Below, piece by piece: positions 28,178 to 59,590 of a stretch of DNA of 64,000 nt. Within the stretch, counting starts at the first letter, position 1, and the number at the start of each line of letters is the position of its first letter. The position numbers and the translations under genes are program-made. Under the pieces are notes generated by a model. The model was not told the origin of the DNA. It saw only the letters and a list, made by a program, of their open reading frames with translations, and made no database searches. This DNA comes from Rhodospirillales bacterium 70-18 (GTDB lineage: Bacteria > Pseudomonadota > Alphaproteobacteria > Acetobacterales > Acetobacteraceae), in assembly GCA_001899585.1 (NCBI GenBank), contig MKWE01000021.1:2388-66387 (forward strand). Direction: 5' to 3'.

Positions 28178-28257
28178 GGCAGATATCCCTTGCGCCGATG
28201 CGGCCGGGCACAGGCCCTGCACCCGGTGCACCCTAGCCGCGATACACGGATGGCACG

Positions 28258-28271
28258 TTGATCCTGGTCAA
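28258..28271. promoter_or_regulatory. FNR/FixK-type box candidate (TTGATCCTGGTCAA)
   Basis: 9 of 10 matches to TTGAT-N4-ATCAA, centred about 87 bp upstream of the SDR start codon. Confidence 0.35.
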
Positions 28272-41647: not shown

Positions 41648-41693
41648 CGTATTGCAGTTGCGAAGGCGGCGCCGCCCGGCGCAGTCTTCGCAC

Positions 41694-44523: not shown

Positions 44524-44559
44524 GTTATCCGGCCGGATGGACTCACCCGGCCGGATAAC
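44524..44559 (+). terminator. rho-independent-type terminator after the PEPC-like gene
   Basis: Perfect 13-bp stem GTTATCCGGCCGG / CCGGCCGGATAAC with a 10-nt loop, followed by ATTTCTTGTT. Confidence 0.65.
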
Positions 44560-44588
44560 ATTTCTTGTTAAAACAGAACGCCAATGTG

Positions 44589-44616
44589 CGATGACCGCTT
44601 CTTTCAGCGGTCATCG
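44589..44616 (-). terminator. hairpin immediately after the TQ-repeat protein gene
   Basis: CGATGACCGC-TTCTTTCA-GCGGTCATCG, 5 nt from the stop codon. A T-rich stretch follows only after about 15 nt. Confidence 0.45.
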
Positions 44617-44620
44617 GGCT

Positions 44621-45001
44621 TTAGCGTCGCGCCCCACCGCCGGCGCCGCCGCCCGACCCCATACCGCCCCCCGGCCCCATGCCGCCGCCGATGGCCGGCG
44701 GTGCGTCGGGCAGGGTGATGCCGCGCTGCCGCGCCCGCTCCTGCATCGCCTGGTGGTTCTCCGCGCGGATGCGGTTGCGCTCCTCGGCGGTGCGCGCGGT
44801 GCGCATGCGGGTGCGGTAGGTGTTGCGCTCGGCGGGCGTCATCAGCTGGCTGCCGTAGATCTGCTCCTCCGTCTGGGTCTGGGTTCGTGTCTGGGTCTGG
44901 GTCTGGGTCTGGGTCTGGGTCTGGGTTTGCGCCAGGACTCCGGGGGCGGCCATCGGCAGCGCGAGGGCGCCGAGCAGAATGCCGCGCGTCAACAACTTCA
45001 T
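44621..45001 (-). CDS. small secreted protein with a (TQ)n tract and a Gly/Met-rich tail (function unknown)
   Basis: AGGAG RBS. Signal peptide MKLLTRGILLGALALPMAAPGVLA/Q, then QTQTQTQTQTQTQTRTQTQT, then LMTPAERNTYRTRMRTARTAEERNRIRAENHQAMQERARQRGITLP, then GGGMGPGGGMGSGGG. Confidence 0.75.
   Translation of the reverse strand: MKLLTRGILLGALALPMAAPGVLAQTQTQTQTQTQTQTRTQTQTEEQIYGSQLMTPAERNTYRTRMRTARTAEERNRIRAENHQAMQERARQRGITLPDAPPAIGGGMGPGGGMGSGGGAGGGARR
44870..44929. repeat. hexanucleotide microsatellite (GTCTGG)n, about 10 units, 8 perfect
   Basis: Read directly. Encodes the TQ dipeptide tract on the minus strand. Confidence 0.9.
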
Positions 45002-45101
45002 GTCAGGCTCCTGTGAAAGCATCGGCTACGGCCGCCGTGAGAGCGGGGCGCGTCAGCCTCGAACGCGATGGCAGTTATTCCGCGGATCGCACGATCGCGC
45101 T

Positions 45102-45115
45102 TTGATCTGGATCAT
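45102..45115. promoter_or_regulatory. FNR/FixK-type box TTGATCTGGATCAT
   Basis: 9 of 10 matches to TTGAT-N4-ATCAA, with the same half-sites as the box at 55480. Lies in the divergent spacer between the TQ-protein gene (ATG 45001) and the first GT2 gene (ATG 45202). Confidence 0.55.
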
Positions 45116-45201
45116 CGCGGCCAGACGGCATGGGGCCTTGCGCGGAGGTCCGGAGTTGCGCAAACACTCCGGAGGGCCGTTACAGGGCCGGCGGGACCGC
45201 C

Positions 45202-46458
45202 ATGCGGCATGCGGGGAGCGCACGAATTGAGTTGCAGGATGCGACAGCGGCGGCCGCGGCATTGACCGCCGGGCAGCCCGGGACCGTGCTGGTGGACACG
45301 CGCGATGCCGCCCCGCGCGGGCTGTCGGTGATCGTGCCGATGTTCGGCACCGCGGGCTATGTCCGGGCCTGCCTGGACTCCGTCATCGCCGCCGGCAGCG
45401 GCGACATCGAACTGGTGATCGTCGATGACGGCAGCCCCGATGACTGCGCACAGGTCGCCCGCGACTGGATCGCGCGCAGCGGCGCCGCCGCGGTGCTGGT
45501 GGCCCGGCCGAATGGCGGCCTGTCGGCGGCGCGCAACACCGGCCTGCTGCATGCCCGTGGCGACTACCTCACCTTCCTGGACAGCGACGACCTGTTCGAC
45601 GGCGCGACCTATCGCCGCATGCTCGGCCTGGGCCGGGCGCACGGAGCCGACCTGGTGTTCGCCCGTGCCGTCTGCATGGATAGCCAGACCCAGAGCCTCT
45701 CGGCGTTTCCGGGCTGGGCGGTCTGGTGGGCCATCATGGGCGACCGGCCGATGCGGCGGACCACGCTGGCCCGCGAACCACGGCTGATGGGGCTGGAACC
45801 CAGCGCCACCACGCGGCTGTACCGGGCGGCGTTCGCCCGGCGGATCGGGCTGGCATTCCCGGAAGGACTGACATTCGAGGACCTGCCGGCGCATGTGCGC
45901 AGCGTCGCGCGGGCGGGCTGCATCTGCCTGCTGGGCGAGACCGGCCTGCAGTACCGGGTCGGGCGGCCGGGGCAGATCACCGCCACGCGCGGCAGCGGGC
46001 GGCAGGACAGCCTGGCGACCGCCGACATGGCGATCGGCGAGGCGCTGGCCGCGCGGCTCGGCCTGGATGCCGGCGCCTGCGCCTATGGCGGCATCGCGCG
46101 CCTGCTGTTCTGGTGCGCGCAGCACGTGGCGCGCGACGAGCGCCCGGCCTTCCTGGCGCGGGCGGCCGAGGTTCTGCGCCGCAGCCCGCCGGGCTGGGCG
46201 ACCGGCTATGCCTTCCGTTTCGCGCCGGACGAGACGGATCGCATGGCAGCGCTGGCGTTCGCGCGGGCAGACATCGTGCTGCTCGCCGAGATGGCCGAAG
46301 GGGCGGCGCCCGGGCTGCTGCGCCTCGCGGCCCGCGCCGGCCAACCGGGCATGCGCCGCCCGTTCGTGCTGCGCTGCCGTGCGGCGGCGCGCGGCTGGGC
46401 CGGGGCGGCGTGGCGCGAGGTCCGGTCTGGCCGGTTGCCGTGGCGCGGCCGATGCTGA
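45202..46458 (+). CDS. glycosyltransferase family 2 (module A, gene 1)
   Basis: LSVIVPMFG...ELVIVDDGSPDD...NGGLSAARNTGL...FLDSDD. The start at 45202 is tentative within track ORF 45130..46458. Confidence 0.82.
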   Translation: MRHAGSARIELQDATAAAAALTAGQPGTVLVDTRDAAPRGLSVIVPMFGTAGYVRACLDSVIAAGSGDIELVIVDDGSPDDCAQVARDWIARSGAAAVLVARPNGGLSAARNTGLLHARGDYLTFLDSDDLFDGATYRRMLGLGRAHGADLVFARAVCMDSQTQSLSAFPGWAVWWAIMGDRPMRRTTLAREPRLMGLEPSATTRLYRAAFARRIGLAFPEGLTFEDLPAHVRSVARAGCICLLGETGLQYRVGRPGQITATRGSGRQDSLATADMAIGEALAARLGLDAGACAYGGIARLLFWCAQHVARDERPAFLARAAEVLRRSPPGWATGYAFRFAPDETDRMAALAFARADIVLLAEMAEGAAPGLLRLAARAGQPGMRRPFVLRCRAAARGWAGAAWREVRSGRLPWRGRC

Positions 46459-47900
46459 CCCCGCCCTGGCTGCGCGAGGCGCTGAGACGGATGGAGCCCT
46501 ATGCCGGCCGCATGTGCGACGATGACGCCTGGCGGGCGCGGACCGGGTTTTTCGGCCCGGTGCGGCTGCCGCAGGCAGCATGCGGCACGCTGCTGCTGAT
46601 CGGCGCCCGCTCCGGCCTGGAGGCGGTGCTGGCGCGGATGGCCAATCCGGCGAGCCGCATTTTCGTGGTAGAGGCCGATCCGGGGCTGCGGCAGCGCATG
46701 CTGGATCTGACCGACGGGCAGGCGCGGGTGTTCGCCACGCTGGAGGCGGCGATGGCAGGCGACCTGCCGGCCGGGATCGACCTGGCGCGGATCGACCTGG
46801 CGGCGTTCAGCCCCGCCGTCGTGGCAACGCTTGCGGCCGGGCGGCGGGTGGACCATCTGTGCGGCGAGGCCAGCGAACTGGCGATGGATGCCCTGGCGCT
46901 GTACCGGCTGTGCCGGGAGCGGGTGCGCAGCTTCTACTTTCATCTCGCCGAGGCCGGCCATGCGATCGCCGGCGACCGGCCGGCGCCGGCGGTGGAGGTG
47001 TCGGTGGTGGTGCCCGCCTACAACGTCGCCGCCTGGGTGGAGGCGGCGCTGGCCAGCCTGGCGGCGCAGACGCTGCAAAGCCTGGAGGTGATCGTGGTCG
47101 ATGACGGTTCGACCGACGCGACCGGCGCGATCGCCGATGCCTGGGCGGCGCAGGACCCGGCGCGGCGGCGCGTGGTGCATCAGGCGAATGCCGGCTGCGC
47201 GGCGGCGCGCATGGCCGGACTGGCGGCCGCGCGCGGCGAGTATGTCGGCTTCGTGGACGGCGACGACTGGGCGGAGCCGCCGATGTTCGAGGAGCTGTAC
47301 CGCGCGGCGGCGCTGCGTGGCGCCGAGATCGGGCAATGCGGCTTCCATGAGGCGTTCGAGGATGGGTCCCGCCAGGATCATCCCACCGCCTGGGGCGGCG
47401 ACGGGCCCGGCGGCACGACCGGCCGGGTCGCCGATCCGCGCGCGCTGCTGCTGCTCCAGCCGTCGATCTGGCGGCGCATCTACCGGCGCGACTTCCTGCT
47501 GCGCGAGCGCATCCGCTTCCCCGAGCATATCCGCCGCTTCGACGACCTGCCCTTCGCCTTCGTCTCGCTGGCCAGGGCCGGCAGCGTCGGCATCATCCCC
47601 GATTGCTATTATGCGTATCGCCAGGGGCGCCCGGGCCAGGACATCGCCGCCCGCGACGAGCGGCTGTTCGTGCATTTCGAGATATTCGAATGGCTGCACG
47701 CCGAGATCCAGCCCTGGGCGGACGCCACGGTGCGACGGAGCTTCGCGCGGCTGCAGTTGGCGACGCACCGCTTCGCGCTCGGCCGGATCGAGCGGCGGTT
47801 GCGCCGGCGCTATCTGGGGGCGGCGGTGCGACAGATGCATGCGCTTGGCGGCGGCGGCCGGGCCGCGCTGCTGTGGCGGCTGTGGCCGGGCTGGCGCTGA
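46452..47900 (+). CDS. two-domain protein: N-terminal FkbM-like methyltransferase-fold domain (tentative) plus GT2 glycosyltransferase (module A, gene 2)
   Basis: 7-nt overlap with the previous gene. N-terminal ...LLLIGARSGLEAVL...IFVVEADPGL...IDLARIDL. GT2 part VSVVVPAYN...VIVVDDGSTD...VDGDD... Confidence 0.78.
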   Translation: MLTPPWLREALRRMEPYAGRMCDDDAWRARTGFFGPVRLPQAACGTLLLIGARSGLEAVLARMANPASRIFVVEADPGLRQRMLDLTDGQARVFATLEAAMAGDLPAGIDLARIDLAAFSPAVVATLAAGRRVDHLCGEASELAMDALALYRLCRERVRSFYFHLAEAGHAIAGDRPAPAVEVSVVVPAYNVAAWVEAALASLAAQTLQSLEVIVVDDGSTDATGAIADAWAAQDPARRRVVHQANAGCAAARMAGLAAARGEYVGFVDGDDWAEPPMFEELYRAAALRGAEIGQCGFHEAFEDGSRQDHPTAWGGDGPGGTTGRVADPRALLLLQPSIWRRIYRRDFLLRERIRFPEHIRRFDDLPFAFVSLARAGSVGIIPDCYYAYRQGRPGQDIAARDERLFVHFEIFEWLHAEIQPWADATVRRSFARLQLATHRFALGRIERRLRRRYLGAAVRQMHALGGGGRAALLWRLWPGWR

Positions 47901-47910
47901 CCGGAGGCAG

Positions 47911-49065
47911 TCAGCCGAGCGGATCGACGAAGAAGGCCGGCAGGCGGGCGCCCTCGGCCAGCATCCGCACCGCGGCCTCGCCGGCGGCCAGCGCCTCGTG
48001 GATGGTGGCGTCCATGTCCAGATAGCGATAGGTCCCCAGCCGGCCGACGAAGCTTACGCCCTCCGTCTGTCGCGCGAGGGCCACATAGTCGGCCAGGGTG
48101 GCCTGGTCGTGCACCAGGCGCACTGGGTAATACGGGGTATCGGCGGCCAGGCACTCGCGGCTGTATTCGCGGTGGCAGATGGTGTCGGCGAACTGCCCGG
48201 CCTCCCATGGGGCGAAGTGCTTGGCCTCGCTGATGCGGGTGTACGGCACGGCTTCGTCGCAATAGTTCATGACGGCGGTGCCCTGGTAGTCGCCGCTGGT
48301 CCGGAACGCTTCGAAATCCAGCGTACGGTAGCGCAACCGGCCCAGCCGACAGCCGAAATAGCGGTCGATCGGGCCGCTGTAGAACACGTGGCGGAACGGC
48401 TCGGCCAGTTCCTCGAAGCGGCAGCCGAGGCGAAGCTCCACGCCGGGCGCGTCCAGGATTGCGGCGACCAGCGCGGTATAGCCGTGCCGCGGCAGGGCCT
48501 GGAACGGATCGCTGAAATAATTGTCGTCGTAGCTGAAGCGCATCGGCAGCCGCTTGAGGATCGAGGCCGGCAGGTCGCGCGGGTCGATGCCCCATTGCTT
48601 GCGCGTATAGCCGCGGAAGAAGGCGTGGTACAGCTCGGGGCCGACCATCGCCAGGGCCTGCTCCTCGAAGCTGGCCGGCTGGGCGATGTCGTGGCGGCGC
48701 TTGCCGGCCAGGAAGTCCCGCGCCTCGGCCGGGCGCAGGGCGGTGCCGAAGAACTGGTTGATGGTGTGCAGGTTGATCGGCAGGGAATAGACGCGCCCGC
48801 CCACCGTCGCCTTCACGCGGTTGACATAGGGCATCATGGTCGCGAAGCGGTTCACGTAGTCCCACACCCGGACGTGACGGGTGTGGAAGATGTGCGGCCC
48901 GTAGCGGTGCACCATGATGCCGGTGGGCGGGTCGCGCTCGGTGTGGCAGTTGCCGGCGACGTGCGGCCGCTCGTCCAGCACCAGCACCCGATGGCCCGCC
49001 TCGGCCAGCGTGCGGGCCAGGACGGCGCCGCTGAACCCGGCGCCGACGATGCAGATGCGGCTCAC
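47911..49065 (-). CDS. glf: UDP-galactopyranose mutase
   Basis: GTG start with GTGA overlap to the upstream gene. ICIVGAGFSGAVLA...GPHIFHT...YTRKQWG...GRLGTYRYLDMD. Confidence 0.92.
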   Translation of the reverse strand: MSRICIVGAGFSGAVLARTLAEAGHRVLVLDERPHVAGNCHTERDPPTGIMVHRYGPHIFHTRHVRVWDYVNRFATMMPYVNRVKATVGGRVYSLPINLHTINQFFGTALRPAEARDFLAGKRRHDIAQPASFEEQALAMVGPELYHAFFRGYTRKQWGIDPRDLPASILKRLPMRFSYDDNYFSDPFQALPRHGYTALVAAILDAPGVELRLGCRFEELAEPFRHVFYSGPIDRYFGCRLGRLRYRTLDFEAFRTSGDYQGTAVMNYCDEAVPYTRISEAKHFAPWEAGQFADTICHREYSRECLAADTPYYPVRLVHDQATLADYVALARQTEGVSFVGRLGTYRYLDMDATIHEALAAGEAAVRMLAEGARLPAFFVDPLG

Positions 49066-50594
49066 GGGGCGGCCTCGCCGTGCCGCGCCCAGCCGTGGCG
49101 CGCCGCGGCGCCGAGCATGAGCCCGCCCGCCCGCCGCCCCATCCGCGCCGCGATCGCCAAGCACTCGGCCGGCGGCAGGTGCACGCGGTTGGCCAGGAGC
49201 TGGCGCTGGGCCCGCCGGCGGTACTCGGCGCTGAATTGCGGCTCGATGCGGCCCAGCGCCCAGAGATGCGTGTTCAACTCCACCCTCAGCAACTGCCGCT
49301 CGATCGCCGCATCCGCCCAGGTGGAGACGCGCGCGCGCAGCCAGTCGAAAATCTCGAAATGCACGAACAGCCTGTCGTCGCGGGCCAGCACGTCCTGCCC
49401 CACGCGGCCCTGGCGGTAGAAATACCAGGGGTCCGGCAGCACCGCGGTCCGCTTCGCGCGGGCCAGCGCCTCGAACTGGAACGGCAGGTCGTCGAAGCGG
49501 CGGATATGCTCGGGGAAGCGGATGTCGCTGCCCAGCAGGAAGTCGCGCCGGTAAATGCGCCGCCAAATCGTCGGGCGCAGCACCAGCATCTCCCGCACGT
49601 CGCGCACCAGGCCGGTCAGCCCGCCGGGGCCGTCGCCGCCGGCGGCGTCGCGGCAGGGGATATCGACGCCATCGGCGTGGGCCTCGACGAAGCCGCACTG
49701 GGCGATCTCGGCGCCGCCAAGCGTGGCGGCCTGGTACAGCCCCTCGAACATCCGGGCATCCGCCCAGTCGTCGCCGTCCACGAAGCCGACATACTCGCCG
49801 CGCGCAGCCGCCAGCCCGACCATGCGCGCCGAGGCGCAGCCGCCGTTCGGCTTGGCCAGCACCCGTATCCGGCCCGGGTGGCGGGCGGCCCATTCGGCCG
49901 CCCTGGCGCCGGTGTCGTCGGGCGAGCCGTCGTCGACGACGATCACCTCCAGTCGCTCGATCTCCTGGGCGGCTAGGCTGGCAAGGCAGCGGTCGATCTC
50001 GGCGCTCACGCGGTAGGCCGGCACGACGACCGAGACCTCGACCTCGACCGGGCCGGCATCGCCACCGAAGGCCAGGGGGCTGTCAGCCTCGCGCCAGAAG
50101 AAGCTGCGCGCCACCTGGTCGCGGCTGCGCCGGTACAGCGCCAGCGGGTCGATGCGGTCCGGCCGGAACAGGCCGCAGAGATGGCCCACGCCCTGCCGTT
50201 CCAGCAGCGCGAGCAGATCGACGTCGCAGAACGGGGCGTCGATGCGGGCGAAGCCGATGCCGCGCCCGCCGGCCGCCGCCAGCGCCTCCGCCACGGTGGC
50301 GACGACCCTGGCGCCAGCATGCTGGCCCAGCGCATCGGCCAGGGTGCCGCGCAGCCAGGCGTCCGGCTCGACCACCAGCACCGTCGCGGTCGGGCTGCGG
50401 TGCAGGGCGGCCAGCGCCTCCAGCCCCGATCGGCCGCCGACATAGAGCGCCGACGGCGACTCGCCGCCGGCCGCCGCATGCAGCGGGCCGTAGAACCCGG
50501 CGCGCAGCCGGGCCGCATCCTCCGCGGCCAAGCCCGCCGGCAGGGCGGCCGGCAGCGCGCCCAGCGCCGCGCGCAGCCCGCGAGGCTCGATCAT
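49062..50594 (-). CDS. two-domain FkbM-like plus GT2 protein (module B, gene 2; paralog of 46452..47900)
   Basis: Start reset to MIEPRGLRAAL at 50594. Long identical blocks with the paralog, e.g. GLAAARGEYVGFVDGDDWA, IWRRIYRRDFLL, IRFPEHIRRFDDLPF, RLFVHFEIF. Confidence 0.8.
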   Translation of the reverse strand: MIEPRGLRAALGALPAALPAGLAAEDAARLRAGFYGPLHAAAGGESPSALYVGGRSGLEALAALHRSPTATVLVVEPDAWLRGTLADALGQHAGARVVATVAEALAAAGGRGIGFARIDAPFCDVDLLALLERQGVGHLCGLFRPDRIDPLALYRRSRDQVARSFFWREADSPLAFGGDAGPVEVEVSVVVPAYRVSAEIDRCLASLAAQEIERLEVIVVDDGSPDDTGARAAEWAARHPGRIRVLAKPNGGCASARMVGLAAARGEYVGFVDGDDWADARMFEGLYQAATLGGAEIAQCGFVEAHADGVDIPCRDAAGGDGPGGLTGLVRDVREMLVLRPTIWRRIYRRDFLLGSDIRFPEHIRRFDDLPFQFEALARAKRTAVLPDPWYFYRQGRVGQDVLARDDRLFVHFEIFDWLRARVSTWADAAIERQLLRVELNTHLWALGRIEPQFSAEYRRRAQRQLLANRVHLPPAECLAIAARMGRRAGGLMLGAAARHGWARHGEAAP

Positions 50595-51775
50595 GCGTGC
50601 GCGGCTCCCCGCAGTTTCCCGCCGATGCGGCGGGCGGCGCCCAGGGCCGGGCGAGCCAGTGCGCGCAGCCCGAGCTTGACCACCGTCCGCCCCTCCGGGT
50701 GCATCGCCAGCCGCAGCCACGGCCACGGCGCGGGGCGGCGGCGGCCCGCCATGTCGTACAGCACGCGATGCGCGCCGGTGGCGAAGGCGCCAAGCAGCAG
50801 GCGCTCGCGCTCGTCGGTGGAGTAGGCGACGCGCGCCAGTCGCAGGGTTTCCGGCTCCAGCCGCCGCACCACCCCGATCGCCTCGCGCAGGAAGCGCGCG
50901 CGGTCGGCGTTGGTGACATTCTGCGCGCACCAGTAGAGCAGCCGCACCGCCTGCAGCGCGAGGTTGGCGCACGCTTCCCGCGACAGGCCGGCGGCGGCGT
51001 CGATGGCGAGCCCCACGCTGTGGATGGCGTCGAAGCGGCGGGCGCTGCGTTCGTCGGTGATCTTGCCGGGGCGGCCGACGCGGTACCAATAGCCGGTTTC
51101 GTTGAGCAGGCCGACATGCCCCGCCCTGGCCAGGCCGTGCACATGCGGGGCCATGTCCTCGAACAGCAGCCCCTCCGGGAAGGCCAGGCCGACCTGGTGC
51201 AGGAAGCTCCGCCGGATAACCCGGGGGTTGGCGTTCGGCTCCAGCCGCAGCAACCTCGGTTCCTGGTCGAGCGTCACCCGGCGAAAGCGCCGCCCGCCCA
51301 TGATGAGGTCCCAGATATGCGCGTCGTAGAAGCGCGACACGGCAAATGTATTCGATTCGAGGACGACGGAGCGGCACAGCACCACGTCGCAGGCCATGCC
51401 CTCGCCCGCCTCGGCCATCGCCGCCAGCACCGCCACGTCAGCCAGGTCGTCGCTGTCCAGGAAACCGACGAACCGGCCGCGCGCCCGTGCCAGCCCGGCC
51501 ATGCGCGCAGCCGACAGGCCGGCATTGGCCTGGTCGATCACGCAGGCCCGCATCGGGGTGTGGCGGACCCAGTCCACCGCCAGCGCGAGGCTGCCATCCG
51601 CCCCGCCGTCATGGACGATGATCACCTCGACCTGCGATAAGGGGGCGGACACCAGCGAGTCGAGCGCCTGACGCAGGTATGCCCGCGTGTTGAATACAGG
51701 AACCACAATCGACAACGACAAAGAATCGGAATTCAAATCCCAATTACTTGATGTGGCAGAGAATTTATCGAACAT
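50591..51775 (-). CDS. glycosyltransferase family 2 (module B, gene 1; paralog of 45202..46458)
   Basis: ATGA overlap with the downstream gene. SIVVPVFN...FLDSDD...GLAFPEGL.FED...YRVGRPG.IT. The ATG is at 51775; the track start at 51784 is GTG. The 5' end is visibly AT-rich. Confidence 0.8.
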   Translation of the reverse strand: MFDKFSATSSNWDLNSDSLSLSIVVPVFNTRAYLRQALDSLVSAPLSQVEVIIVHDGGADGSLALAVDWVRHTPMRACVIDQANAGLSAARMAGLARARGRFVGFLDSDDLADVAVLAAMAEAGEGMACDVVLCRSVVLESNTFAVSRFYDAHIWDLIMGGRRFRRVTLDQEPRLLRLEPNANPRVIRRSFLHQVGLAFPEGLLFEDMAPHVHGLARAGHVGLLNETGYWYRVGRPGKITDERSARRFDAIHSVGLAIDAAAGLSREACANLALQAVRLLYWCAQNVTNADRARFLREAIGVVRRLEPETLRLARVAYSTDERERLLLGAFATGAHRVLYDMAGRRRPAPWPWLRLAMHPEGRTVVKLGLRALARPALGAARRIGGKLRGAAHA

Positions 51776-51921
51776 TACAACCACCCGAGGCGATCAGTAT
51801 GAGAATTATGGGACAATAATTGATCATTGACGAAAATTTAGTCAAGTGATATTTGATTTCGTAAGATCTGAAACTTACGTGCGCGCAACAATACTTTCAT
51901 CACGTTGTGGACTACACAAAA

Positions 51922-52845
51922 ATGACAGGCGCGACCACTGCCGCAGGGGGGCAGCAGACGAACGCAGGGATATGGGCGGTCGTCGTCGCGTGCAACCGGC
52001 CGGCCGAGTTGGAGCGGCTGCTGGCCGCCATCGCGGCCCAAAGCGTGGCTGTGGATCGCGTCCTGGTGATCGACAACGGCACCAACCCCCTTGTGGCGCA
52101 GGTGGCCGCCGCACGCAGCGCCCAATACCATCGCTCGCTGCGCAACATGGGCGGCGCGGGCGGTTTCGCCCTCGGCATGCTGCTGGCGCTGGCGGGCGGC
52201 GCCAGGACCCTGTGGCTGTGGGACGACGATGGCTGGCCGGAAGGCGAGGACTGCCTGGAACGCCTGCTGGGCTGCATGGCCGCAACCGGCGGGGCCATCG
52301 TGGCGCCCCTGCTGATCAGCGCCGATGCCCCCGGCCGCGCCGCGTTCGGCTACCGGCTGAACGGGCGGACCACCTTCTCCCGCGCGGCGCTGCAACAGCG
52401 CCCCTTGCTGCATGGCATGGCCCATCTGTTCAACGGCACCGTGGTTCCGGCGACGACCGCCGACCGCTTCGGCATCCCCGACATACGGCTGTTCATCCGC
52501 GGCGACGAGGTGGATTTCCTGTATCGTGTCCTGGCCGGCGGCGGCATCGTCGCCACGGTGACGGCGGCGGTCGCGCGCCATCCCTCGGCGGAAGCGGAGA
52601 CACACAGCCTGCTGGGCGGGCGCATTTTCGCCGTGCATCCGGCCGACCCGATGCGCCGGGCGATGCTGTTCCGCAACCGGGGCTACCTGTTCCGGCGGCA
52701 CCGCCGCTGGGGCTTCCTGGCCCTGGATCATGTTCGCTACACGCTGTTCTTCATCGTGCGCCGCCGCCCCGACCTGGCCGGGTTCCGCGCCTGGTTGCGC
52801 CAGACATGGCGCGGCGTGGGCGAAAAGCTCGGTCCACCCCCGTGA
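51922..52845 (+). CDS. glycosyltransferase family 2, possibly a galactofuranosyltransferase (GlfT1-like)
   Basis: ...AVVVACNRP..L..LL..I..Q......VLVIDNGT...RNMGGAGGFALG...WLWDDD. The ATG is at 51922; the GTG at 51907 is also in frame. The Galf-specific assignment is inference from glf proximity. Confidence 0.72.
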   Translation: MTGATTAAGGQQTNAGIWAVVVACNRPAELERLLAAIAAQSVAVDRVLVIDNGTNPLVAQVAAARSAQYHRSLRNMGGAGGFALGMLLALAGGARTLWLWDDDGWPEGEDCLERLLGCMAATGGAIVAPLLISADAPGRAAFGYRLNGRTTFSRAALQQRPLLHGMAHLFNGTVVPATTADRFGIPDIRLFIRGDEVDFLYRVLAGGGIVATVTAAVARHPSAEAETHSLLGGRIFAVHPADPMRRAMLFRNRGYLFRRHRRWGFLALDHVRYTLFFIVRRRPDLAGFRAWLRQTWRGVGEKLGPPP

Positions 52846-52876
52846 GCAGGGGCGCCGGGTCCGGGCGCCCCCGCTC
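52844..52876. terminator. GC-rich hairpin between the convergent GT2 and outer-membrane protein genes
   Basis: GAGCAGGGGCGCC-GGGTCC-GGGCGCCCCCGCTC. Confidence 0.5.
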
Positions 52877-52903
52877 ACGGGGGGGGGGCCGGGCGCCGGC
52901 CGG

Positions 52904-54523
52904 TCAGAACTGCGAACCGAGACGGAAATACACCTCGTTGCGATCATAGCGGGCCAGCGTGACATTGGAATCCCGCAGCGTGTACCGATAATCCACGCCC
53001 AGCGTCACCTTCGGCGTCAACCGGTAGCGCAGCCCCACGGACATGTCGGCGTCGTTGTCCACCCGCGTCGCCTGAATGAAATCGCTACGGCCCCAGGCCA
53101 CGCGGGCGATGCCGGTCAGGTCCTGCGTCAGGCGCTGCTCCACCCGCCCGCCGACCACCGTGTAGATATAGCCCGGGCTGCCGGAGAGCGTCGTCTCCTC
53201 CATCGAGCGGTCGGTATAGAGGATCAGCGCGGTGCCGGAGGTGGCCTGCCACCGCAGGCTGCCATCGAAGCTCGGCGTGGTGGTGGTCTTGAACCGGGAA
53301 TCCTCGGCGTTCCGGCTCATCACGCCGACCGAGAAATCGCCCCGCACGCTGGTGGAGATGCGGAACAGCGCGCCGGCGCTGACGCGGTAACCGTCGGAGC
53401 TGCGGGCATAGCCGAAATCGTCGTACCGGCTGTTGTAGCGGCGGATATCGCCCAGCAGTTCCACGAACGGCCGGAACGCCGGATTCGCCTCGTAGCGGAC
53501 CAGCGTACCGAAGGTATAGCGCGTCCGGTTGCGATCCTGGTTGTTGATGATGCCGTTGGCGCCATCGACATTGCTGAAGGTGAGGTGCTCGATCGCGCCG
53601 CCCAGCCGGATCGAGAAATCACCGTAGCGGTGGATCACGCCGGCATAGCCGTTGCTTTCCATATATGGCGTGGGCGTGATGCCGTTCACCGCGTCGGGCG
53701 AGGAGCGGTCCTCGTGGCTGGCGATCGCGGTGGCGCCGAGCAGGATCTGCGTCTGCTGGCTGGCGTCGATCCGGCCCTCGATGTTGGCGTTCCAGTCCAC
53801 CGTGTTCTCATGCGGCGAGCGGGCATAGCCGGTGAGGTCGGTCTGCACCTCGGCGGTCAGCGAATGCCGCTCCCAGTTCGACTCCACGCTCAGCTTGGGC
53901 GAGATCGTTCCCAGCCAGTCGCTGCGGCGGCTGGTCTTGGTGGCGTAGATGTTGTCGTCGAATATCAGCGCGGACTGGATGTCGGGGTAGATGGTGAACG
54001 ACCCCACGCGGTAGCCGGGACCGCCCAGTTGCGGCGCGCCGGGCGGGGCCAGCGTGGTCTGCGCCGGGGCAGGCGGCAGCGGCCGCACGTCGGCGGCGGC
54101 CATGCGGCCAAGCTCGCTCGCCACCGCCTGGCGCACCGCCTGCGCGCTGGCCGGGGGGGCCGCGGCAGTGATACGGTCGGTGATGCCGCGATAGACCGGC
54201 ACGCTGGCGCCGATGAAGCCGCTGACCGGCGCGCCGGCGACCCGCGCCAGGGCGGCGGCGCGCGCCGGGGTGGAAGCCAGCGCCGGGTTGGCGCGCAGCA
54301 CGTCGTCCAGCGCGCGCAGCAGCGCCGCCGGCCCGTCGGCCGACGCGGTGGTGAGCTGCCGCTCCACCCCGGCATCAACGGGCTGGCCCTGCCCGTAGGC
54401 CGGCGCCAGCGTCGCTACCGCCGCGGCAACCCCGGTGCACACCGCCAGCGCCCGCAGGGCATTGGCGCCGGCGCGACCGGCTTTTCGATCGCAGGGAGTC
54501 GATTTCGTCTTGTAAGCACTCAT
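52904..54523 (-). CDS. outer-membrane beta-barrel protein (putative beta-barrel porin-2 type seen in polysaccharide loci)
   Basis: 539 aa. Signal peptide, an Ala/Pro-rich N-terminal region, then alternating-residue beta-strand patterns, ending ...YFRLGSQF with a terminal aromatic residue. Confidence 0.72.
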   Translation of the reverse strand: MSAYKTKSTPCDRKAGRAGANALRALAVCTGVAAAVATLAPAYGQGQPVDAGVERQLTTASADGPAALLRALDDVLRANPALASTPARAAALARVAGAPVSGFIGASVPVYRGITDRITAAAPPASAQAVRQAVASELGRMAAADVRPLPPAPAQTTLAPPGAPQLGGPGYRVGSFTIYPDIQSALIFDDNIYATKTSRRSDWLGTISPKLSVESNWERHSLTAEVQTDLTGYARSPHENTVDWNANIEGRIDASQQTQILLGATAIASHEDRSSPDAVNGITPTPYMESNGYAGVIHRYGDFSIRLGGAIEHLTFSNVDGANGIINNQDRNRTRYTFGTLVRYEANPAFRPFVELLGDIRRYNSRYDDFGYARSSDGYRVSAGALFRISTSVRGDFSVGVMSRNAEDSRFKTTTTPSFDGSLRWQATSGTALILYTDRSMEETTLSGSPGYIYTVVGGRVEQRLTQDLTGIARVAWGRSDFIQATRVDNDADMSVGLRYRLTPKVTLGVDYRYTLRDSNVTLARYDRNEVYFRLGSQF

Positions 54524-54575
54524 ATTTCACCTGCGAGAGTTGTGCTGCGCACCAGCCGGAGGCATTCGTCTATCA

Positions 54576-55358
54576 ATGTCAAGAACCAATAGACCCGCCG
54601 TGCGGCCGGCGCGAGTGCTGCCGGCCGTTCCGCCGCGCGATTGCGCCCTGTGCGGCGTGCGCCAGCTTGCGCTGTTCCAGTCATTTCCGCCCGACGTGCT
54701 GGGGCGCCTGAGCGTGCTGCGGCGCGGCGTGCGCATGGTGCCGGCCGGCGGGCAGATCGTGCCGCCCGGCCAGCCAGCCGCCGAGGTGTTCACCGTGTTC
54801 CGCGGCTGGGCCTTCAGTTACCGGCTGACCCACGAGGGGCGCCGCCAGATCCTGGACTTCCACCTGCCCGGCGACCTGATCGGCGCGGAGTTCCTCGCCG
54901 CCGCCCCCACCGGCGCCGGGGCCGACGCGCTGACCGCGGTGTCGCTCTGCGCGTTCGACGCCGCGCTCCTGATGCAGGCGGCGGCCGACATGCCGCCGCT
55001 GGCCGCGGCACTCACCTGGATGGTGGCGCGCGAGGAGGCGGTGCTGGCCGAACGCCTGACCGCCGTGGGCCGGCGCAGCGCCGCCGACCGTCTGGGCCAT
55101 CTGCTGCTGGAGATGTGGACGCGCCAGCGCCTGCGCGAGGGCGAGGATGGCGCGGAGTGTCGCTTCCCGCTGACCAACCAGCATATGGCCGACGTGCTGG
55201 GGCTCAGCCCGGAGCATGTCAGCCGCTCGCTGGCGCAATGGCGCCACCGGCAGCTTGCCTTCGTGGACAGCGGCCGCCTGCGCCTGCCGGACGCGGCCCA
55301 ACTGGCCGAGCTGTGCGACTGGACCCCGGGCTACCTGCATCCGCGGCCTATCCTCTAG
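54576..55358 (+). CDS. Crp/Fnr family transcriptional regulator (FNR/FixK-type recognition helix)
   Basis: Start reset to MSRTNRP at 54576. cNMP-like beta-roll. HTH ...MADVLGLSPEHVSRSLAQW carries the E--SR motif. The N-terminus has C-A-L-C but lacks the third N-terminal FNR cysteine. Confidence 0.85.
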   Translation: MSRTNRPAVRPARVLPAVPPRDCALCGVRQLALFQSFPPDVLGRLSVLRRGVRMVPAGGQIVPPGQPAAEVFTVFRGWAFSYRLTHEGRRQILDFHLPGDLIGAEFLAAAPTGAGADALTAVSLCAFDAALLMQAAADMPPLAAALTWMVAREEAVLAERLTAVGRRSAADRLGHLLLEMWTRQRLREGEDGAECRFPLTNQHMADVLGLSPEHVSRSLAQWRHRQLAFVDSGRLRLPDAAQLAELCDWTPGYLHPRPIL

Positions 55359-55479
55359 ATCCGCCACGACGGCCGCCCCTCGTCCTGATCGTCCCGGTAT
55401 CGGGTGTTTCCGTATGCATTTCAAGCCCCTCACCCATGCGCCATTACGACATCGTTAATGCATTATTGGCGATGCAGCA

Positions 55480-55493
55480 TTGATTTAGATCAT
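55480..55493 (+). promoter_or_regulatory. FNR/FixK-type box TTGATTTAGATCAT with class-II-like geometry
   Basis: 9 of 10 matches to TTGAT-N4-ATCAA. GATTAT at 55517..55522 lies about 33 bp from the box centre, as for a -41.5 activator site. Lies 100 bp upstream of the ATG at 55593. Confidence 0.6.
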
Positions 55494-55592
55494 GGCGACG
55501 TGACCATGAAACACCCGATTATGCTTCCAACAGAGCGGCAAAGTTTTGGCTTCGCCGTCACCATATGAATACGACTCGCCAGTAGGTAATCA

Positions 55593-56054
55593 ATGTTACC
55601 GCATCGCGACGCCCGACGCCCGATCCACCGCCTCGCCGCCATGGCGCTCGTCCTGACGGCCGGAATCGGGGGCACGGCGCACGGCAGCACACCGCCCCTC
55701 ACCGCTGCCACGTGGTGCGCCGACTACCGGCCGGGCGCGCTGGGCGCGCGGCAGCGATTGGAGGGCGAGAACCTGACACGGTTGCAGGCGACCCAGGCGT
55801 TCCTGGCGCCCGGCTTCGCCGCCGGACAATCCCGGACCGGGATCGCCATGCTGGCGGACTACCAGGAGGAGATGGACCGGCCGCACCCCGACCGTGAGGC
55901 GGCGGCCGCCTATCTGGCCACCGCCAGCACGGTGCACATCACGCTCGACGTGGTTGGCATGGTCAACCGCACGCTGTGCGTGGCGGCCGGGCAGGCGACG
56001 GCGCAGGCAATCGCCACCGCGGCCGAGGCGGCGCGGGCCGAGATGGCGCGCTGA
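55593..56054 (+). CDS. hypothetical secreted protein (153 aa)
   Basis: N-terminal signal-like RRPIHRLAAMALVLTAGIGGTAHG, G/C-rich third positions, and a stop 2 nt before the next ATG. No recognisable family. Confidence 0.65.
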   Translation: MLPHRDARRPIHRLAAMALVLTAGIGGTAHGSTPPLTAATWCADYRPGALGARQRLEGENLTRLQATQAFLAPGFAAGQSRTGIAMLADYQEEMDRPHPDREAAAAYLATASTVHITLDVVGMVNRTLCVAAGQATAQAIATAAEAARAEMAR

Positions 56055-56056
56055 GC

Positions 56057-56680
56057 ATGGTCGACAAGCAAGGGATGCAGCAGATGGATGGGTTTCCGAC
56101 ACGCACCGCGGCACGGCGAACCAGTCTGACGCGGCGTGGCCTTGCCGCCACGCTGGCCGGCGGCTTGGCGACAATCCTGCTCGGCGGCGTCGCCATGGCC
56201 CAGGGGCACACCTCGGGCGGCGGCACCGACTCCGGGCACGGTTCCGGCGGCGGCGGTTCCGGTGGCGGAACCGACTCCGGGCACAGCTCCGGCGGTGGCA
56301 GTTCCGGCGGCGGTGACGAAGGCAGCGGCGGGCATACCTCCGGTGGCGGTGACGAAGGCGGCCGTAAGGGCGCCGGTCGCGGCCCACAGCAGCGCGCGGT
56401 CCGCCATCGTGCCCGCACCGGCCAAACCCTGGGCGGCGGCGAGTCCGGCGGCGGCCATAGCGGCGGCGGCCATGGCGGTGGCGGCCATGGCGGTGGCGGC
56501 CATGGCGAAGGCGAGGAAAATGAAGGCGGCACCGATACGGCGGGCACCACCCCGGGCGCCGCGCCCGCCATCACCGGCCTGAGCGAAGGCTCGGTGTCTG
56601 GCGGCGCTACCGGGGCCGAGCACTTCGTCCATGACAGCCCCAGCTATTGGGGCGCGGACGGCAAGGTGCTCCGCCGCTGA
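56057..56680 (+). CDS. Tat-signal Gly/His/Ser-rich low-complexity secreted protein (hypothetical)
   Basis: TRRGLAATLAGGLATILLGGVAMA/QG is a twin-arginine-like signal. Then GGGTDSGH(G/S)SGGG x2, GGHTSGGGDEG x2 and GGGHGGGGHGGGGHG. This frame has the best G/C third-position bias of the overlapping frames. Confidence 0.6.
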   Translation: MVDKQGMQQMDGFPTRTAARRTSLTRRGLAATLAGGLATILLGGVAMAQGHTSGGGTDSGHGSGGGGSGGGTDSGHSSGGGSSGGGDEGSGGHTSGGGDEGGRKGAGRGPQQRAVRHRARTGQTLGGGESGGGHSGGGHGGGGHGGGGHGEGEENEGGTDTAGTTPGAAPAITGLSEGSVSGGATGAEHFVHDSPSYWGADGKVLRR

Positions 56681-56813
56681 CGAGATCGCTGCCGCATATC
56701 GGCCCCTGAACGACCGGTCCGACGGCGGCGGGCGTACTGCGGAGTGCTGAACGCTGCGTCCGCAGCCGTTCCGCGTTCCGGCTACAAAGGTTCAACCCGA
56801 GGAGAACTTCCAA

Positions 56814-57701
56814 ATGACATCGATCAACACCCCCCGCCCCGCCTTGCGCAAGATCCTCAACGGGTCGGTCGCGCTTGGCATGGCGCTTGCTTTCGCGGCC
56901 GCCCCGCTCCCCGCAGCGACCGGCCTCGGCGGCGCCGCATTCGCCCAGGGCCAGGGCCAGGGCCAGGGTCAGGGTCAGGGCAAAGGTCAGGGCCAGGGCA
57001 CTGTCCGTCAGCCCGGCGCCGGTGGCGGTGCCACCTCGGGTGGCCAGATGGGCAAGGGCGGCAGCAGCGGCACCGGCAGCGGCACCACCGAAGGTGAGAC
57101 CGACTCCGACAAGAAAGGCCCGCAATTCGGCGGTGGCACCAACACCCGCAAGCCCGCGCCGGGCACCAGCGGCGGCAAGCCGGTCTGGGCGCAGGAAGGC
57201 ATTCCCGCGGTCGAGCTGGGCCGCCTGAGCGTCGCCCGCGCCCCGGCCCATGTGATCGAGAAGGCGGCGGCCGAGGCCCTCTCCAACTGGACCACCATGG
57301 GCACCACCGTGCTGACGCTGGCCGCCGAAGGGCAGCCGACGCTGACCATGACCGTGGCGCAGCTCTACTCCCTGCCCGCGCTCCAGTTCGCGAACATCGT
57401 GATGACCTACTATCCCTCGCTCGTTCGGATCGACTCGCCGCTGGAGAATCTCGGCCTGCTGCAGATCCTCGGCAAGACCGGCACCTCGCCGCTCCCCGGG
57501 GTCACGCCGGCCAGCAACATCGACCTCGCCGCGATCTTCCTCGCGTCGGCGTCGGACAAGACCCTGGCGATCAGCGTCGATACCGTGATCGCCATGAACA
57601 CGCTGCTCGGCCTGCCGTCGATGACGGTGGAGCAGGCGACCCAGCTGGCGACCGATGCCGAAGCGGTGCGCCTGGCCATCCTGATCGGCCACGACGGCTG
57701 A
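56814..57701 (+). CDS. secreted protein with a (GQ)n tract, a Gly/Ser/Thr-rich linker and a roughly 170-aa C-terminal domain of unknown function
   Basis: GAGGAG RBS. Signal peptide ...LGGAAFA/QGQGQGQGQGQGKGQGQG. The C-terminal domain (...VELGRLSVARAPAHVIEKAAAEAL...) is not recognised. A rho-independent terminator follows. Confidence 0.75.
   Translation: MTSINTPRPALRKILNGSVALGMALAFAAAPLPAATGLGGAAFAQGQGQGQGQGQGKGQGQGTVRQPGAGGGATSGGQMGKGGSSGTGSGTTEGETDSDKKGPQFGGGTNTRKPAPGTSGGKPVWAQEGIPAVELGRLSVARAPAHVIEKAAAEALSNWTTMGTTVLTLAAEGQPTLTMTVAQLYSLPALQFANIVMTYYPSLVRIDSPLENLGLLQILGKTGTSPLPGVTPASNIDLAAIFLASASDKTLAISVDTVIAMNTLLGLPSMTVEQATQLATDAEAVRLAILIGHDG
56946..56999. repeat. hexanucleotide microsatellite (CAGGGY)n, 9 units
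   Basis: Read directly. Encodes the GQ dipeptide tract. Confidence 0.9.
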
Positions 57702-57748
57702 TCCGGCGGCGCCCGGCCGGCGCGCAGACGGCCCGGGCGCCACGCGAG

Positions 57749-57779
57749 AGGCCGCTCCCTTCGGGGGGCGGCCTTTTTC
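57749..57779 (+). terminator. rho-independent terminator
   Basis: AGGCCGC-TCCCTTCGGGG-GCGGCCT followed by TTTTT. Confidence 0.8.
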
Positions 57780-57821: not shown

Positions 57822-58681
57822 TCATCCGCGGTAATGCTGGTGCCGGCGCAGCCGCGCCGCCAGGCTGTCGCGCGGGCCGGTGAGCAGGCTGGCCGTCCAC
57901 AGCCCGCCCGCCGTCAGCACGATCGCCGGGCCGGCGGGGATGTTGGCGTGGTAGGACAGCAGCAGCCCGCACACCGAGGACAGCAGCGCCAGCGCCACCG
58001 CGGCGCGCACCTGCCCGGCCAGTTCGGCGGCCCAGTGGCGGGCGGCGACCGCCGGCAGCATCATCAGGCCGATCGACATCAGCGTGCCCAGCGCCGCGAA
58101 GCCGCCGACCACGCACAGCACCACCAGCGCCATGAACGCCAGGTGCCAGGCGCCGCCGCGCCCGCCGACCGCCTGCATGAAGCCGGGGTCGAAGCTCTCC
58201 AGGATCAGCGGCCGCCAGATCACCGCCAGCCCCGGCAGCGCGATGCTGGCGACGCCGGCCATCAGCAGCAGCGCGGTGTTGTCCACCGCCAGCACGCTGC
58301 CGAACAGCAGATGCCCAAGGTCGATGCCGCGCGTGGCCGAGACGATGGCCACGCCCCCGGCCAGCGCGATCAGGTAGACGCCGGCAAGCTGGCTGTCCTC
58401 CCGCCCGCCGGTGGCCCGCGCCAGCCAGCCGGCCAGCAGCGCCACCGCCAACCCGGCCAGGAAGCCGCCGAACCCCATCGCCCACAGCGACAGCCCGCCG
58501 AACAGCGCCCCCAGCGCGATGCCGGGCAGGATGCCGTGTTGCAGCACGTCGCTGGTCAGGCTCATCCGCCGCAGCACCAGCAACACGCCGAGCGGCGGCC
58601 CGGCCAGCGACAGCGCGACGCAGCCGGCCAGCGCCCGGCGCATGAAGGCCATGGCGAAGGGTTCGATCAGCAGGGCGTGGA

Positions 58682-58685
<4 letters not shown>
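57822..58685 (-). CDS. znuB: metal (zinc-type) ABC transporter permease
   Basis: Start reset to MIHALLIEPFAMAFMRRAL at 58685. ABC-3 family pattern with 8-9 helices. ATGA overlap with the upstream ATPase gene. Confidence 0.8.
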
Positions 58686-59424
<739 letters not shown>

Positions 59425-59428
<4 letters not shown>

Positions 59429-59526
59429 ATCGCCCACCACACGCCGAGCCAGACGAGGGCGACCAGCACGAGCGCCAGCGCCAGCCGCGCGCCAAGCCCG
59501 GAAGCCAGGGAAAGGGGGTCCTGCAT
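59425..59526 (-). CDS. unannotated 33-aa single-pass membrane ORF translationally coupled to znuC (putative)
   Basis: MQDPLSLASGLGARLALALVLVALVWLGVWWAI. 29 of 33 third positions are G/C. Its stop overlaps the znuC start (ATATGA). No SD is present, and the ATG lies 1-2 nt from the Zur-like box. Too short for the ORF track. Confidence 0.45.
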
Positions 59527-59527
59527 T

Positions 59528-59540
59528 GTTATAGTATAAC
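59528..59540. promoter_or_regulatory. Zur-box-like palindrome GTTATAGTATAAC
   Basis: Perfect 6-1-6 palindrome of the TGTTATA-N-TATAACA type, in the spacer between the znu operon and the divergent DUF445 gene. Confidence 0.6.
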
Positions 59541-59590
59541 GTCACCCCCCCTTGCCGGTAAACCGGGACCGCGTGATAGCCTGCCATGCA

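Follow-up and report, generated by a model that had tools for sequence, protein, structure and literature searches.

A candidate low-oxygen-controlled envelope module of an outer-membrane barrel and four exported proteins, interleaved with a glf/GT2 island in an Acetobacteraceae genome

Outer-membrane barrels of the PF10082 family are described in the literature from exopolysaccharide (EPS) clusters, with epsL of Herbaspirillum and aceG of the acetan cluster as examples. An outer-membrane barrel with periplasmic partners is also known from pioABC of Rhodopseudomonas palustris, an anaerobic system under a FixK-type regulator and the site TTGAT-N4-ATCAA (PMC3050613). Here we analysed a stretch of 64,000 nucleotides (nt) from Rhodospirillales bacterium 70-18 (Acetobacteraceae; contig MKWE01000021.1), hereafter the window. 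Within it, a region of 13 kb (44621-57779, 12 genes) holds a PF10082 barrel, four exported proteins (TQ133, p153, p207 and p295), two FNR-type boxes, a Crp/FNR-family regulator, the UDP-galactopyranose mutase gene glf and five glycosyltransferase genes of the GT2 type. We consider it probable that this region is a composite of a conserved envelope module, a clade-specific Crp/FNR paralog and a glf/GT2 island, and that the module is induced by hypoxia and acts at the outer membrane. Few bacterial regulons have been studied as closely as those of FNR/FixK, yet the literature searched contains no description of this module.

Like EpsL, AceG and the TIGR03016 proteins, the window barrel is a clear PF10082 member; its subfamily is instead syntenic with exported Gly-rich proteins and carries FNR boxes. 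pioABC provides a precedent for a FixK-controlled barrel with periplasmic partners, but the module has no haem-binding motifs and no homology to it, and its barrel belongs to a different family. The OprD/Occ porins (including OprE/OccK8) and AlgE share the strand number of the predicted barrel and give its best Foldseek matches, and OprE is an anaerobically induced porin; however, they have no sequence relationship to the window barrel, which carries an extra periplasmic helical domain of 95 residues and a conserved loop of its own. Curli (CsgG/E/F, CsgA/B) and Fap (FapF, FapA-E) likewise combine a dedicated outer-membrane protein with Sec-exported, low-complexity Gly/Gln-rich proteins, whereas the window proteins have neither homology to them nor amyloid repeats, and the partners have folded domains. 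TQ133 is similar to Spy, CpxP and ZraP in design only, being small, exported and helical with a tail rich in Gly and Met. Finally, the island resembles mycobacterial Glf/GlfT1/GlfT2 and Klebsiella galactan-I (WbbM/N/O and Glf) in combining glf with a GlfT1-like gene and four other GT2 genes. It differs from these galactofuranan systems in that Wzm/Wzt, flippase, polymerase and priming transferase are absent from the region and the GT2 genes form mirror-image pairs.

Co-occurrence and make-up of the module

For the comparison, we fetched 84 loci with 10-kb flanks through the alignment of the p295 family. Four were duplicates, leaving 80 species-level loci from Acetobacteraceae, other Rhodospirillales, Rhodobacteraceae, Rhizobiales, Burkholderiales (Pandoraea, Bordetella, Polaromonas) and Gammaproteobacteria. 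Co-occurrence was counted by tblastn with the window proteins and by all-against-all clustering of open reading frames (ORFs); since a quick gene caller mis-calls antisense ORFs in loci of high guanine-plus-cytosine (GC) content, neighbour statistics were restricted to homology clusters. Across these loci the module genes are syntenic and co-oriented, and p295 is accompanied by an outer-membrane barrel in 64/80. This barrel belongs to PF10082 in 44 loci. In 20 further loci a small barrel of ~260 residues, unrelated to PF10082, lies directly downstream of p295; PF13505 was recognised in 11 of the 13 members tested. The small barrel is the partner of p295 in Rhodobacteraceae and Rhizobiales, and no locus contains both barrel types (0/80). 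We found p153 in 37 loci. The complexity of p207 is too low for ordinary BLAST; scored by its two motifs, it lies between p153 and p295 in 35 or more of the 84 fetched loci. TQ-type proteins are encoded in at least 13 loci (nine recognised by a match to the core, four of the Acidocella type by the same design). TQ-type genes immediately follow p295 or p153 in nine loci of Rhodospirillales and Burkholderiales; the order in Pandoraea cepalis is barrel, p295, a GH-rich p153-type gene and TQ. At the four Acidocella-type loci, the TQ-type gene stands directly behind the barrel gene, on the same strand and with its own FNR box, and its product runs from a signal peptide through TQ/DQ repeats and a charged helix to a GGM tail. 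ORF clustering over all loci brought out no further recurrent neighbour apart from generic ABC ATPases and response regulators. The PF10082 barrel, hitherto interpreted as a protein of polysaccharide loci, is here found uncoupled from polysaccharide genes and tied to exported disordered proteins.

Because the window has ~70% GC, its genes were called by codon-position GC, and the calls were cross-checked against public gene calls on identical contigs, which are present in several metagenomes. The module, its boxes, the regulator and the boundaries are placed as follows.

44524-44627 (no strand): two hairpins forming the 5' boundary, between a phosphoenolpyruvate carboxylase (PEPcase)-like gene and the TQ gene
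44621-45022 (-): TQ133, module member (ORF and translation)
45102-45115 (no strand): FNR-type box 1, TTGATCTGGATCAT (sequence)
52904-54523 (-): outer-membrane barrel, BBP2_2/PF10082, module member (Pfam, E 1e-103)
54576-55358 (+): Crp/FNR-family regulator (Pfam cNMP_binding and HTH_Crp_2)
55480-55493 (no strand): FNR-type box 2, TTGATTTAGATCAT (sequence)
55593-56054 (+): p153, exported, module member (locus clustering and alignment)
56057-56680 (+): p207, Gly/His-rich, exported, module member (translation and motifs)
56814-57701 (+): p295, exported, module anchor (homolog family and predicted structure)
57756-57778 (+): terminator-like hairpin with a T-run, 3' of p295

The barrel scores 347.6 bits against PF10082 over residues 169-538 (gathering cutoff 23.7 bits) and is thus a member of that family. 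It belongs neither to EpsL (TIGR03014; 22.7 bits, cutoff 275) nor to the PEP-CTERM-associated TIGR03016 proteins (57.1 bits, cutoff 90.85). The AlphaFold2 (AF2) model, with a predicted local distance difference test (pLDDT) score of 84.9, comprises a signal peptide, a periplasmic helical domain (51-144), a disordered linker (146-163) and 18 strands (176-538). Foldseek retrieved OccK/OprD, AlgE, MOMP and chitoporin with TM-scores of ~0.5 on the target; we did not take these matches as identifying the barrel, since they are generic 18-strand channels and do not discriminate. A conserved loop of the barrel reads EHEDRxSPDAVxGxTPTPY.

Four of the five module proteins have no known family: TQ133, p153, p207 and p295, singly and as family alignments, gave no Pfam, NCBIfam or PDB sequence match. 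All four carry an N-terminal hydrophobic segment, which is weak in p153. In each, a long Gly-rich tract predicted to be disordered accompanies a small conserved domain or motif, although for p153 the tract is present only in homologs. The Gly-rich tracts hold 36-44% Gly plus Ser, Thr, Gln and Ala, with 4-6% His (44% Gly and 6% His in p207). The repeats begin right behind the AQ of the signal peptide and are tandem repeats at the DNA level, (GTCTGG)x9.3 at 44871-44926 in TQ133, (CCAGGG)x9.2 at 56945-56999 in p295, and units of 45 and 15 nt at 56216-56507 in p207. A p295 variant from another metagenome, 99% identical, lacks exactly one GQ unit; hence the hexanucleotide repeats slip and vary in length between strains.

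p295 consists of a signal peptide, a (GQ)n/Gly-rich disordered tract (residues ~30-122) and a helical domain (123-295), and contains the invariant motif GGxPxW...LGRLxVxRxP. In its AF2 model, all 10-residue blocks between 131 and 295 exceed a pLDDT of 90, and a Foldseek comparison of this model with the PDB gave nothing below E 1. The family counts more than 655 homologs, all 'hypothetical' and none with a Pfam domain, and a hidden Markov model (HMM) scan of 1.84 billion representatives returned 562 relatives (representatives at 50% identity). Among the matches listed, all relatives are stand-alone proteins of 79-389 residues, mostly 240-340, and none fits a second domain; the shortest look like fragments. 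Tandem duplicates of p295 occur at loci L029, L033, L045, L055, L070, L072, L076 and L080, mostly Rhodobacteraceae, and a distant paralog (31-35% identity) lies ahead of the main copy in L037, L044 and L050.

p153 has a domain of ~115 residues with two invariant Cys, as seen in the alignment of a family assembled from the fetched loci; a word-indexed search for homologs of p153 retrieved nothing but the protein of its own source metagenome-assembled genome (MAG). Its homologs in beta- and gammaproteobacteria have long (GGGH)n-type tracts ahead of the domain, which the window p153 lacks. The homologs of L031, L035 and L039 have lipobox-like signal peptides (LLGAC, VTSC, LASC) with a Cys that is absent from the window p153, so that the p153 homologs of the Roseomonas-like clade may be lipoproteins. 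p207 is predicted to be disordered, with an RR (Tat-like) leader and the motifs RxRHRxRTGxTLGGG and EHFVHDS...LRR. TQ133 is built of a signal peptide, the (TQ)n tract, a charged helical core (IYGSQLMTxxERxxYRxRMRxAxTxxERxxIRxEHHxxMQERAxxRGxxLPDxPP) and a Gly/Met tail. The barrel-adjacent TQ slot of L030 (6121-6873, -) holds an LTXXQ (Spy/CpxP/ZraP) protein with an N-terminal Gly/Met tract (27.2 bits), which may be a non-orthologous replacement of the TQ-type gene. The C-termini of the exported proteins (...GGGARR, ...EMAR, ...KVLRR, ...IGHDG) are not of the PEP-CTERM type and no exosortase is encoded among the genes of the region, nor did the 12 proteins of the region give a Pfam match to CsgG or FapF.

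A previous annotation made by eye, the sequence-only reading, had proposed an undescribed locus with four secreted proteins of no recognisable family, three of them with (TQ)n, (GQ)n or Gly/His tracts starting at or just behind signal-peptide cleavage. The proteins and the tracts hold up, and so does the claim of novelty: the four proteins and the barrel are syntenic in many genera, the four have neither a family nor a PDB relative, and we found no description of the module in the literature searched. The HMM and structure predictions that it recommended yielded a confident domain for p295 and no family or PDB match for any of the four. It had also placed terminators at both ends. The 3' one stands, whereas the 5' hairpins, although strong, have no classic T-run directly behind either stem (44524-44559, an inverted repeat of 16 nt with 94% complementarity; 44578-44627, one of 22 nt with 82%).

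FNR-type boxes and the regulator

Boxes 1 and 2 each match nine of the ten consensus bases of TTGAT-N4-ATCAA. These two near-identical boxes, already noticed by the sequence-only reading, account for two of the only three places in the 64 kb that fit TTGATN4ATCA exactly; 15 matches with at most one mismatch were counted against 3.3 expected. The centre of box 1 lies 86 nt upstream of the TQ133 start (107 nt from Met8), and that of box 2 lies 106 nt upstream of p153, with a GATTAT ~30 nt downstream of the box. In 50/80 of the related loci, the 800 nt ahead of the conserved domains contain the strict palindrome TTGA[TC]N4[GA]TCAA, and 60/80 do so when one end base is relaxed. Of all sites in the 80 loci, 60/79 fall within 7.7% of the sequence, a 38-fold enrichment (Poisson P ~2e-71), and a stricter definition of the zone gives 47-fold. 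The palindrome stands, in most loci, just upstream of the first module gene, which is p153 in Acetobacteraceae and p295 elsewhere, and is usually the sole one in 20 kb. In Burkholderiales it sits between the barrel and p295, and in Acetobacteraceae there are often two boxes in the divergent barrel/p153 spacer. Boxed module loci span alpha-, beta- and gammaproteobacteria. The presence of these palindromes upstream of the module in 50-60 of the 80 loci argues that the predicted low-oxygen control is conserved across the module, as a family trait that does not depend on the local regulator.

The regulator belongs to the Crp/FNR superfamily (PF00027, E 3e-9; PF13545, E 3e-14), and its recognition helix reads EHVSR, in accordance with the E--SR pattern given by the sequence-only reading. 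FNR proper is defined by three N-terminal Cys and one central Cys as [4Fe-4S] ligands, together with a score above the equivalog cutoff. The regulator scores 64-76 bits against the NCBIfam models FnrL, Fnr and FixK, whose cutoffs are 228-300. In an alignment of four paralogs, a CxxC, the central Cys of LLCAF and a fourth Cys (CxFP) are conserved, and the third N-terminal Cys of FNR is absent; an Fe-S sensor is possible in these paralogs. A Crp/FNR homolog was found in 4/80 loci, three of them in the arrangement of the window and one, more distant, on the opposite strand. The dedicated paralog between barrel and p153 is a feature of a Roseomonas-like clade (the window, L031, L035/L088 and L039/L003), in which the boxes end in ATCAT or ATCAG, not ATCAA. 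Most genomes would need a regulator encoded elsewhere. The formerly proposed FNR control is supported by the predicted FNR-type sites of most related loci, whereas the dedicated regulator is confined to one clade. Elsewhere in the window, the third exact TTGATN4ATCA site (7748-7760) probably lies within a coding region, and a near-palindrome, TTGATCCTGGTCA, at 28258-28270 stands just upstream of a gene ending at 28231 (-); these two sites may be further FNR-type targets.

The glf/GT2 island

The island occupies 7.8 kb (45116-52903) between the barrel stop codon and the unit formed by box 1 and TQ133, and contains the following genes.

45130-46458 (+): GT2A (Pfam PF00535, E 2e-27; alternative start at 45202 possible)
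46455-47900 (+): GT2B (Pfam PF00535, E 3e-32)
47911-49065 (-): glf, UDP-galactopyranose mutase (Pfam GLF PF03275, E 1e-70)
49062-50594 (-): GT2B' (Pfam Glycos_transf_2)
50591-51775 (-): GT2A' (Pfam Glycos_transf_2)
51922-52845 (+): GlfT1-like GT2 (Pfam PF00535; NCBIfam NF050113, E 5e-71, below cutoff)

The window combines the Acidocella-type arrangement of barrel and TQ gene with these 7.8 kb in between. Since the TQ-type gene abuts the barrel in the Acidocella-type relatives, the glf/GT2 block appears to be lineage-specific and to interrupt the module. glf is absent from the related loci (0/80), and GT2 matches were obtained in two species. Roseomonas sp. HF4, the closest relative of the Crp type, has the order barrel|Crp-p160-p194-p284 with no glycosyltransferase nearby. 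By this comparison, the island would not be part of the conserved system, and this glycosyltransferase island is predicted to be restricted to the present lineage. The borders show neither direct or inverted repeats nor a GC shift, the GC being that of the genome; hence the island does not appear to be a recent, scarred insertion. A DNA-level search of a plasmid collection gave matches to glf only, and no p295 relative was found there at the protein level.

The product of glf is a UDP-galactopyranose mutase by its domains (PF03275, E 1e-70; PF13450, E 2e-20). It has 384 residues in the public gene call, and the gene shows 71-76% DNA identity to annotated glf genes. With 239 bits over its full length, against an equivalog cutoff of 330 bits for NF050113, the GlfT1-like protein reads as a homolog, not an equivalog, of GlfT1. 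Around glf (-), GT2A-GT2B (+) and GT2B'-GT2A' (-) form a mirror image (45130-51775), with 42% identity between A and A' and 55% between B and B', as if a cassette of two glycosyltransferase genes had long ago been duplicated in inverted orientation. GT2B and GT2B' have, by eye, an FkbM-like methyltransferase-type N-terminal part, for which no tool gave a hit. The GT2 enzymes contain no 19-residue segment with a Kyte-Doolittle value of at least 1.6, except two borderline ones in the GlfT1-like protein, and thus would not constitute a synthase-type system. Scans of the 12 region genes and of ten other window genes detected no Wzx/Wzy, Wza/Wzc, glycan ABC exporter, Wzm/Wzt, multi-pass membrane GT2 synthase or priming transferase, and those of the region genes detected no oligosaccharyltransferase or flippase. 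The convergent GlfT1-like and barrel genes are separated by a 58-nt spacer (52846-52903) in which a strong GC hairpin (GTGAGCAGGGGCGCC...GGCGCCCCCGCTCAC) precedes a run of ten G; it is probably a bidirectional terminator and marks where the island ends on the right. The 130-nt spacer that separates GT2A' from the divergent GlfT1-like gene (in 51600-51900) has a GC content of ~45% compared with 70% for the genome; it holds the only sigma-70-like promoter matches of the region and no FNR box.

The inventory made by the sequence-only reading, with glf, five GT2 genes, the barrel and the FNR-type regulator, agrees with these domain scans, as does the absence of a Wzx/Wzy, Wza/Wzc, ABC exporter or priming transferase, in the 13 kb and among the other window genes scanned. 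In contrast, its unification of the galactofuranose (Galf) glycan genes and the secreted proteins into one locus is not supported by the distribution of glf and GT2 genes or by the abutting of TQ gene and barrel in relatives, and the comparison lends no support to secreted proteins as glycan acceptors or matrix partners, an idea that may still hold for this one organism. The expected conservation of the gene set extends to the barrel and the exported proteins; glf and the GT2 genes are left out, and the regulator is retained in one clade only. In the 80 related loci, homologs of the secreted proteins never co-occur with glf, while they do so with GT2 genes in two species and with the regulator in 4/80 loci. 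For annotation, this is a warning: the glycan genes interleaved with the module here reflect the position of an island, not a conserved shared function.

Proposed action and competing explanations

We propose that an FNR/FixK-type activator, in the window probably the local paralog, would bind the TTGAT-N4-ATCA boxes when oxygen is limiting and induce both TQ133 and the p153-p207-p295 operon. Their products would be exported to the periplasm, three by Sec-type leaders and p207 by its Tat-like RR leader, and would work with the barrel at the outer membrane. The main argument for this joint action is the coupling of p295 to either type of barrel. The folded domains might dock to the barrel or to its periplasmic domain, the Gly-rich tracts might serve as flexible tethers or be threaded through the pore, and TQ133 might be a Spy/ZraP-like periplasmic helper. 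The role would most likely be an adaptation of the envelope or channel to hypoxia, metal buffering being only a lead. The predicted module, an 18-strand PF10082 barrel with a periplasmic helical N-domain plus four exported proteins, would offer a testable entry to the remodelling of outer membrane and periplasm when oxygen runs out, and cultivable carriers exist (Acidocella aminolytica, Neoroseomonas alkaliterrae, Pandoraea cepalis). A bolder extension is a hypoxia-induced envelope machine of Proteobacteria, in which the 18-strand channel exports, threads or anchors Gly-rich disordered proteins as a new translocating or periplasm-spanning system; we regard this as doubtful. It is just as tentatively that we picture such a machine as built from three families without a Pfam or NCBIfam model, one of them with a confidently predicted fold unmatched in the PDB.

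Several observations weigh against the proposed hypoxia-induced module. We infer the association of the partners with the barrel from synteny, and no tool result links them physically. The FNR sites are predictions from sequence, 20-30 of the 80 loci have no recognisable box, both window boxes deviate from a perfect palindrome, and the window barrel gene has no box ahead of it. The divergent GT2A might also be served by box 1 if it starts at 45202, and the left GT2 pair may then be under FNR control as well. As for the helper role of TQ133, a relationship to Spy/ZraP was tried and rejected, TQ133 and seven homologs giving no LTXXQ or Metal_resist match up to E 10. The enrichment of His and Met in the tracts is modest and inconsistent; 12 of 126 members with a Gly-rich tract reach 8% His. 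Moreover, in some lineages the module may be functionally linked to glycans, given that the island lies inside the module, that different glycosyltransferases and methyltransferases flank it on both sides in N. alkaliterrae, that a dTDP-sugar cluster adjoins it in a MAG (L087), and that PF10082 barrels occur in EPS loci.

The same four observations, with the island lying between two boxed genes, are what speaks for a single FNR-controlled locus, in which glf and the five GT2 enzymes would make a Galf glycan that is attached to or assembled with the Thr/Gln/Gly-rich proteins and exits via the barrel. Ser/Thr-rich disordered tracts are moreover typical substrates of O-glycosylation. We nevertheless consider this quite improbable, in view of the absence of glf from the 80 loci, the two species with GT2 matches, the HF4 locus devoid of nearby glycosyltransferases, the lack of an oligosaccharyltransferase, flippase or exporter in the region, GT2 enzymes without membrane segments, and the Acidocella-type TQ gene joined to the barrel with nothing between. 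It is highly unlikely that the barrel is an EpsL/AceG-type porin for a polysaccharide made elsewhere, with the four proteins as periplasmic accessory or scaffold factors. Membership of PF10082, the weak TIGR03016 and EpsL matches, the similarity to the AlgE fold and the EpsL/AceG literature are consistent with such a porin, but the scores fall far short of the cutoffs for EpsL and TIGR03016, almost no module locus contains polysaccharide genes, and p295 of Rhodobacteraceae and Rhizobiales pairs with a small barrel that is not a porin.

Two further explanations give the Gly-rich tracts the leading part. In a curli- or Fap-like export system, which we hold to be unlikely, the barrel would be the conduit for Gly-rich proteins that build a surface or matrix layer under hypoxia. 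The coupling of p295 to some outer-membrane barrel in 64/80 loci, the long Gly/Gln/Ser/Thr-rich tracts of all four partners and a barrel with periplasmic N-domain and disordered linker, which we take to resemble FapF loosely, would all suit it, and an 18-strand pore like that of AlgE can pass a linear polymer. However, the compact folded domains of p295 and p153 would not fit through the pore, imperfect repeats of the amyloid type and Csg or Fap homology are lacking, and the PF13505 barrel of 20 loci is, by its size, an unlikely protein conduit. A periplasmic metal module for Cu, Zn or Ni is rather improbable too. Its Gly/His and Gly/Met tracts would bind metal, the barrel would be the passage, and induction at low oxygen would go with Cu(I)/Fe(II) chemistry. 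It draws on (GGGH)n in the window p207 and in beta-proteobacterial p153-type proteins, on (GGGM)n tails in most TQ-type proteins, on the ZraP/Spy-family protein in the TQ slot of L030, and on neighbours: an ABC-3 transporter in the window, a P-type ATPase, a ferritin and a CzcB-like RND adaptor in L086, and, both recognised by eye from translations, a TonB-dependent receptor and a PepSY-like membrane protein in Pandoraea. Against it, the tracts contain 4-6% His overall and nearly none in the p207 proteins of acidophiles, one TQ-type protein has Tyr in place of Met, and the neighbours vary, with no metal gene conserved beside the module.

Beyond its boundaries, the region is flanked on the left by the gene of the PEPcase-like protein (943 residues, 41652-44483, +), directly preceded by DegT and epimerase genes. 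This protein matches the phosphoenolpyruvate carboxylase model over residues 342-564 only (E 1e-18, profile positions 401-624 of 919) and reads as an atypical or very divergent PEPcase-like protein. Directly beyond the module on the right lies a pair of ABC-3 permease and ATPase genes of the Znu/Mnt/Tro metal-transporter type (57822-59545, -); no gene for a solute-binding protein adjoins the pair, and DUF445, luciferase-like and pirin genes come next.

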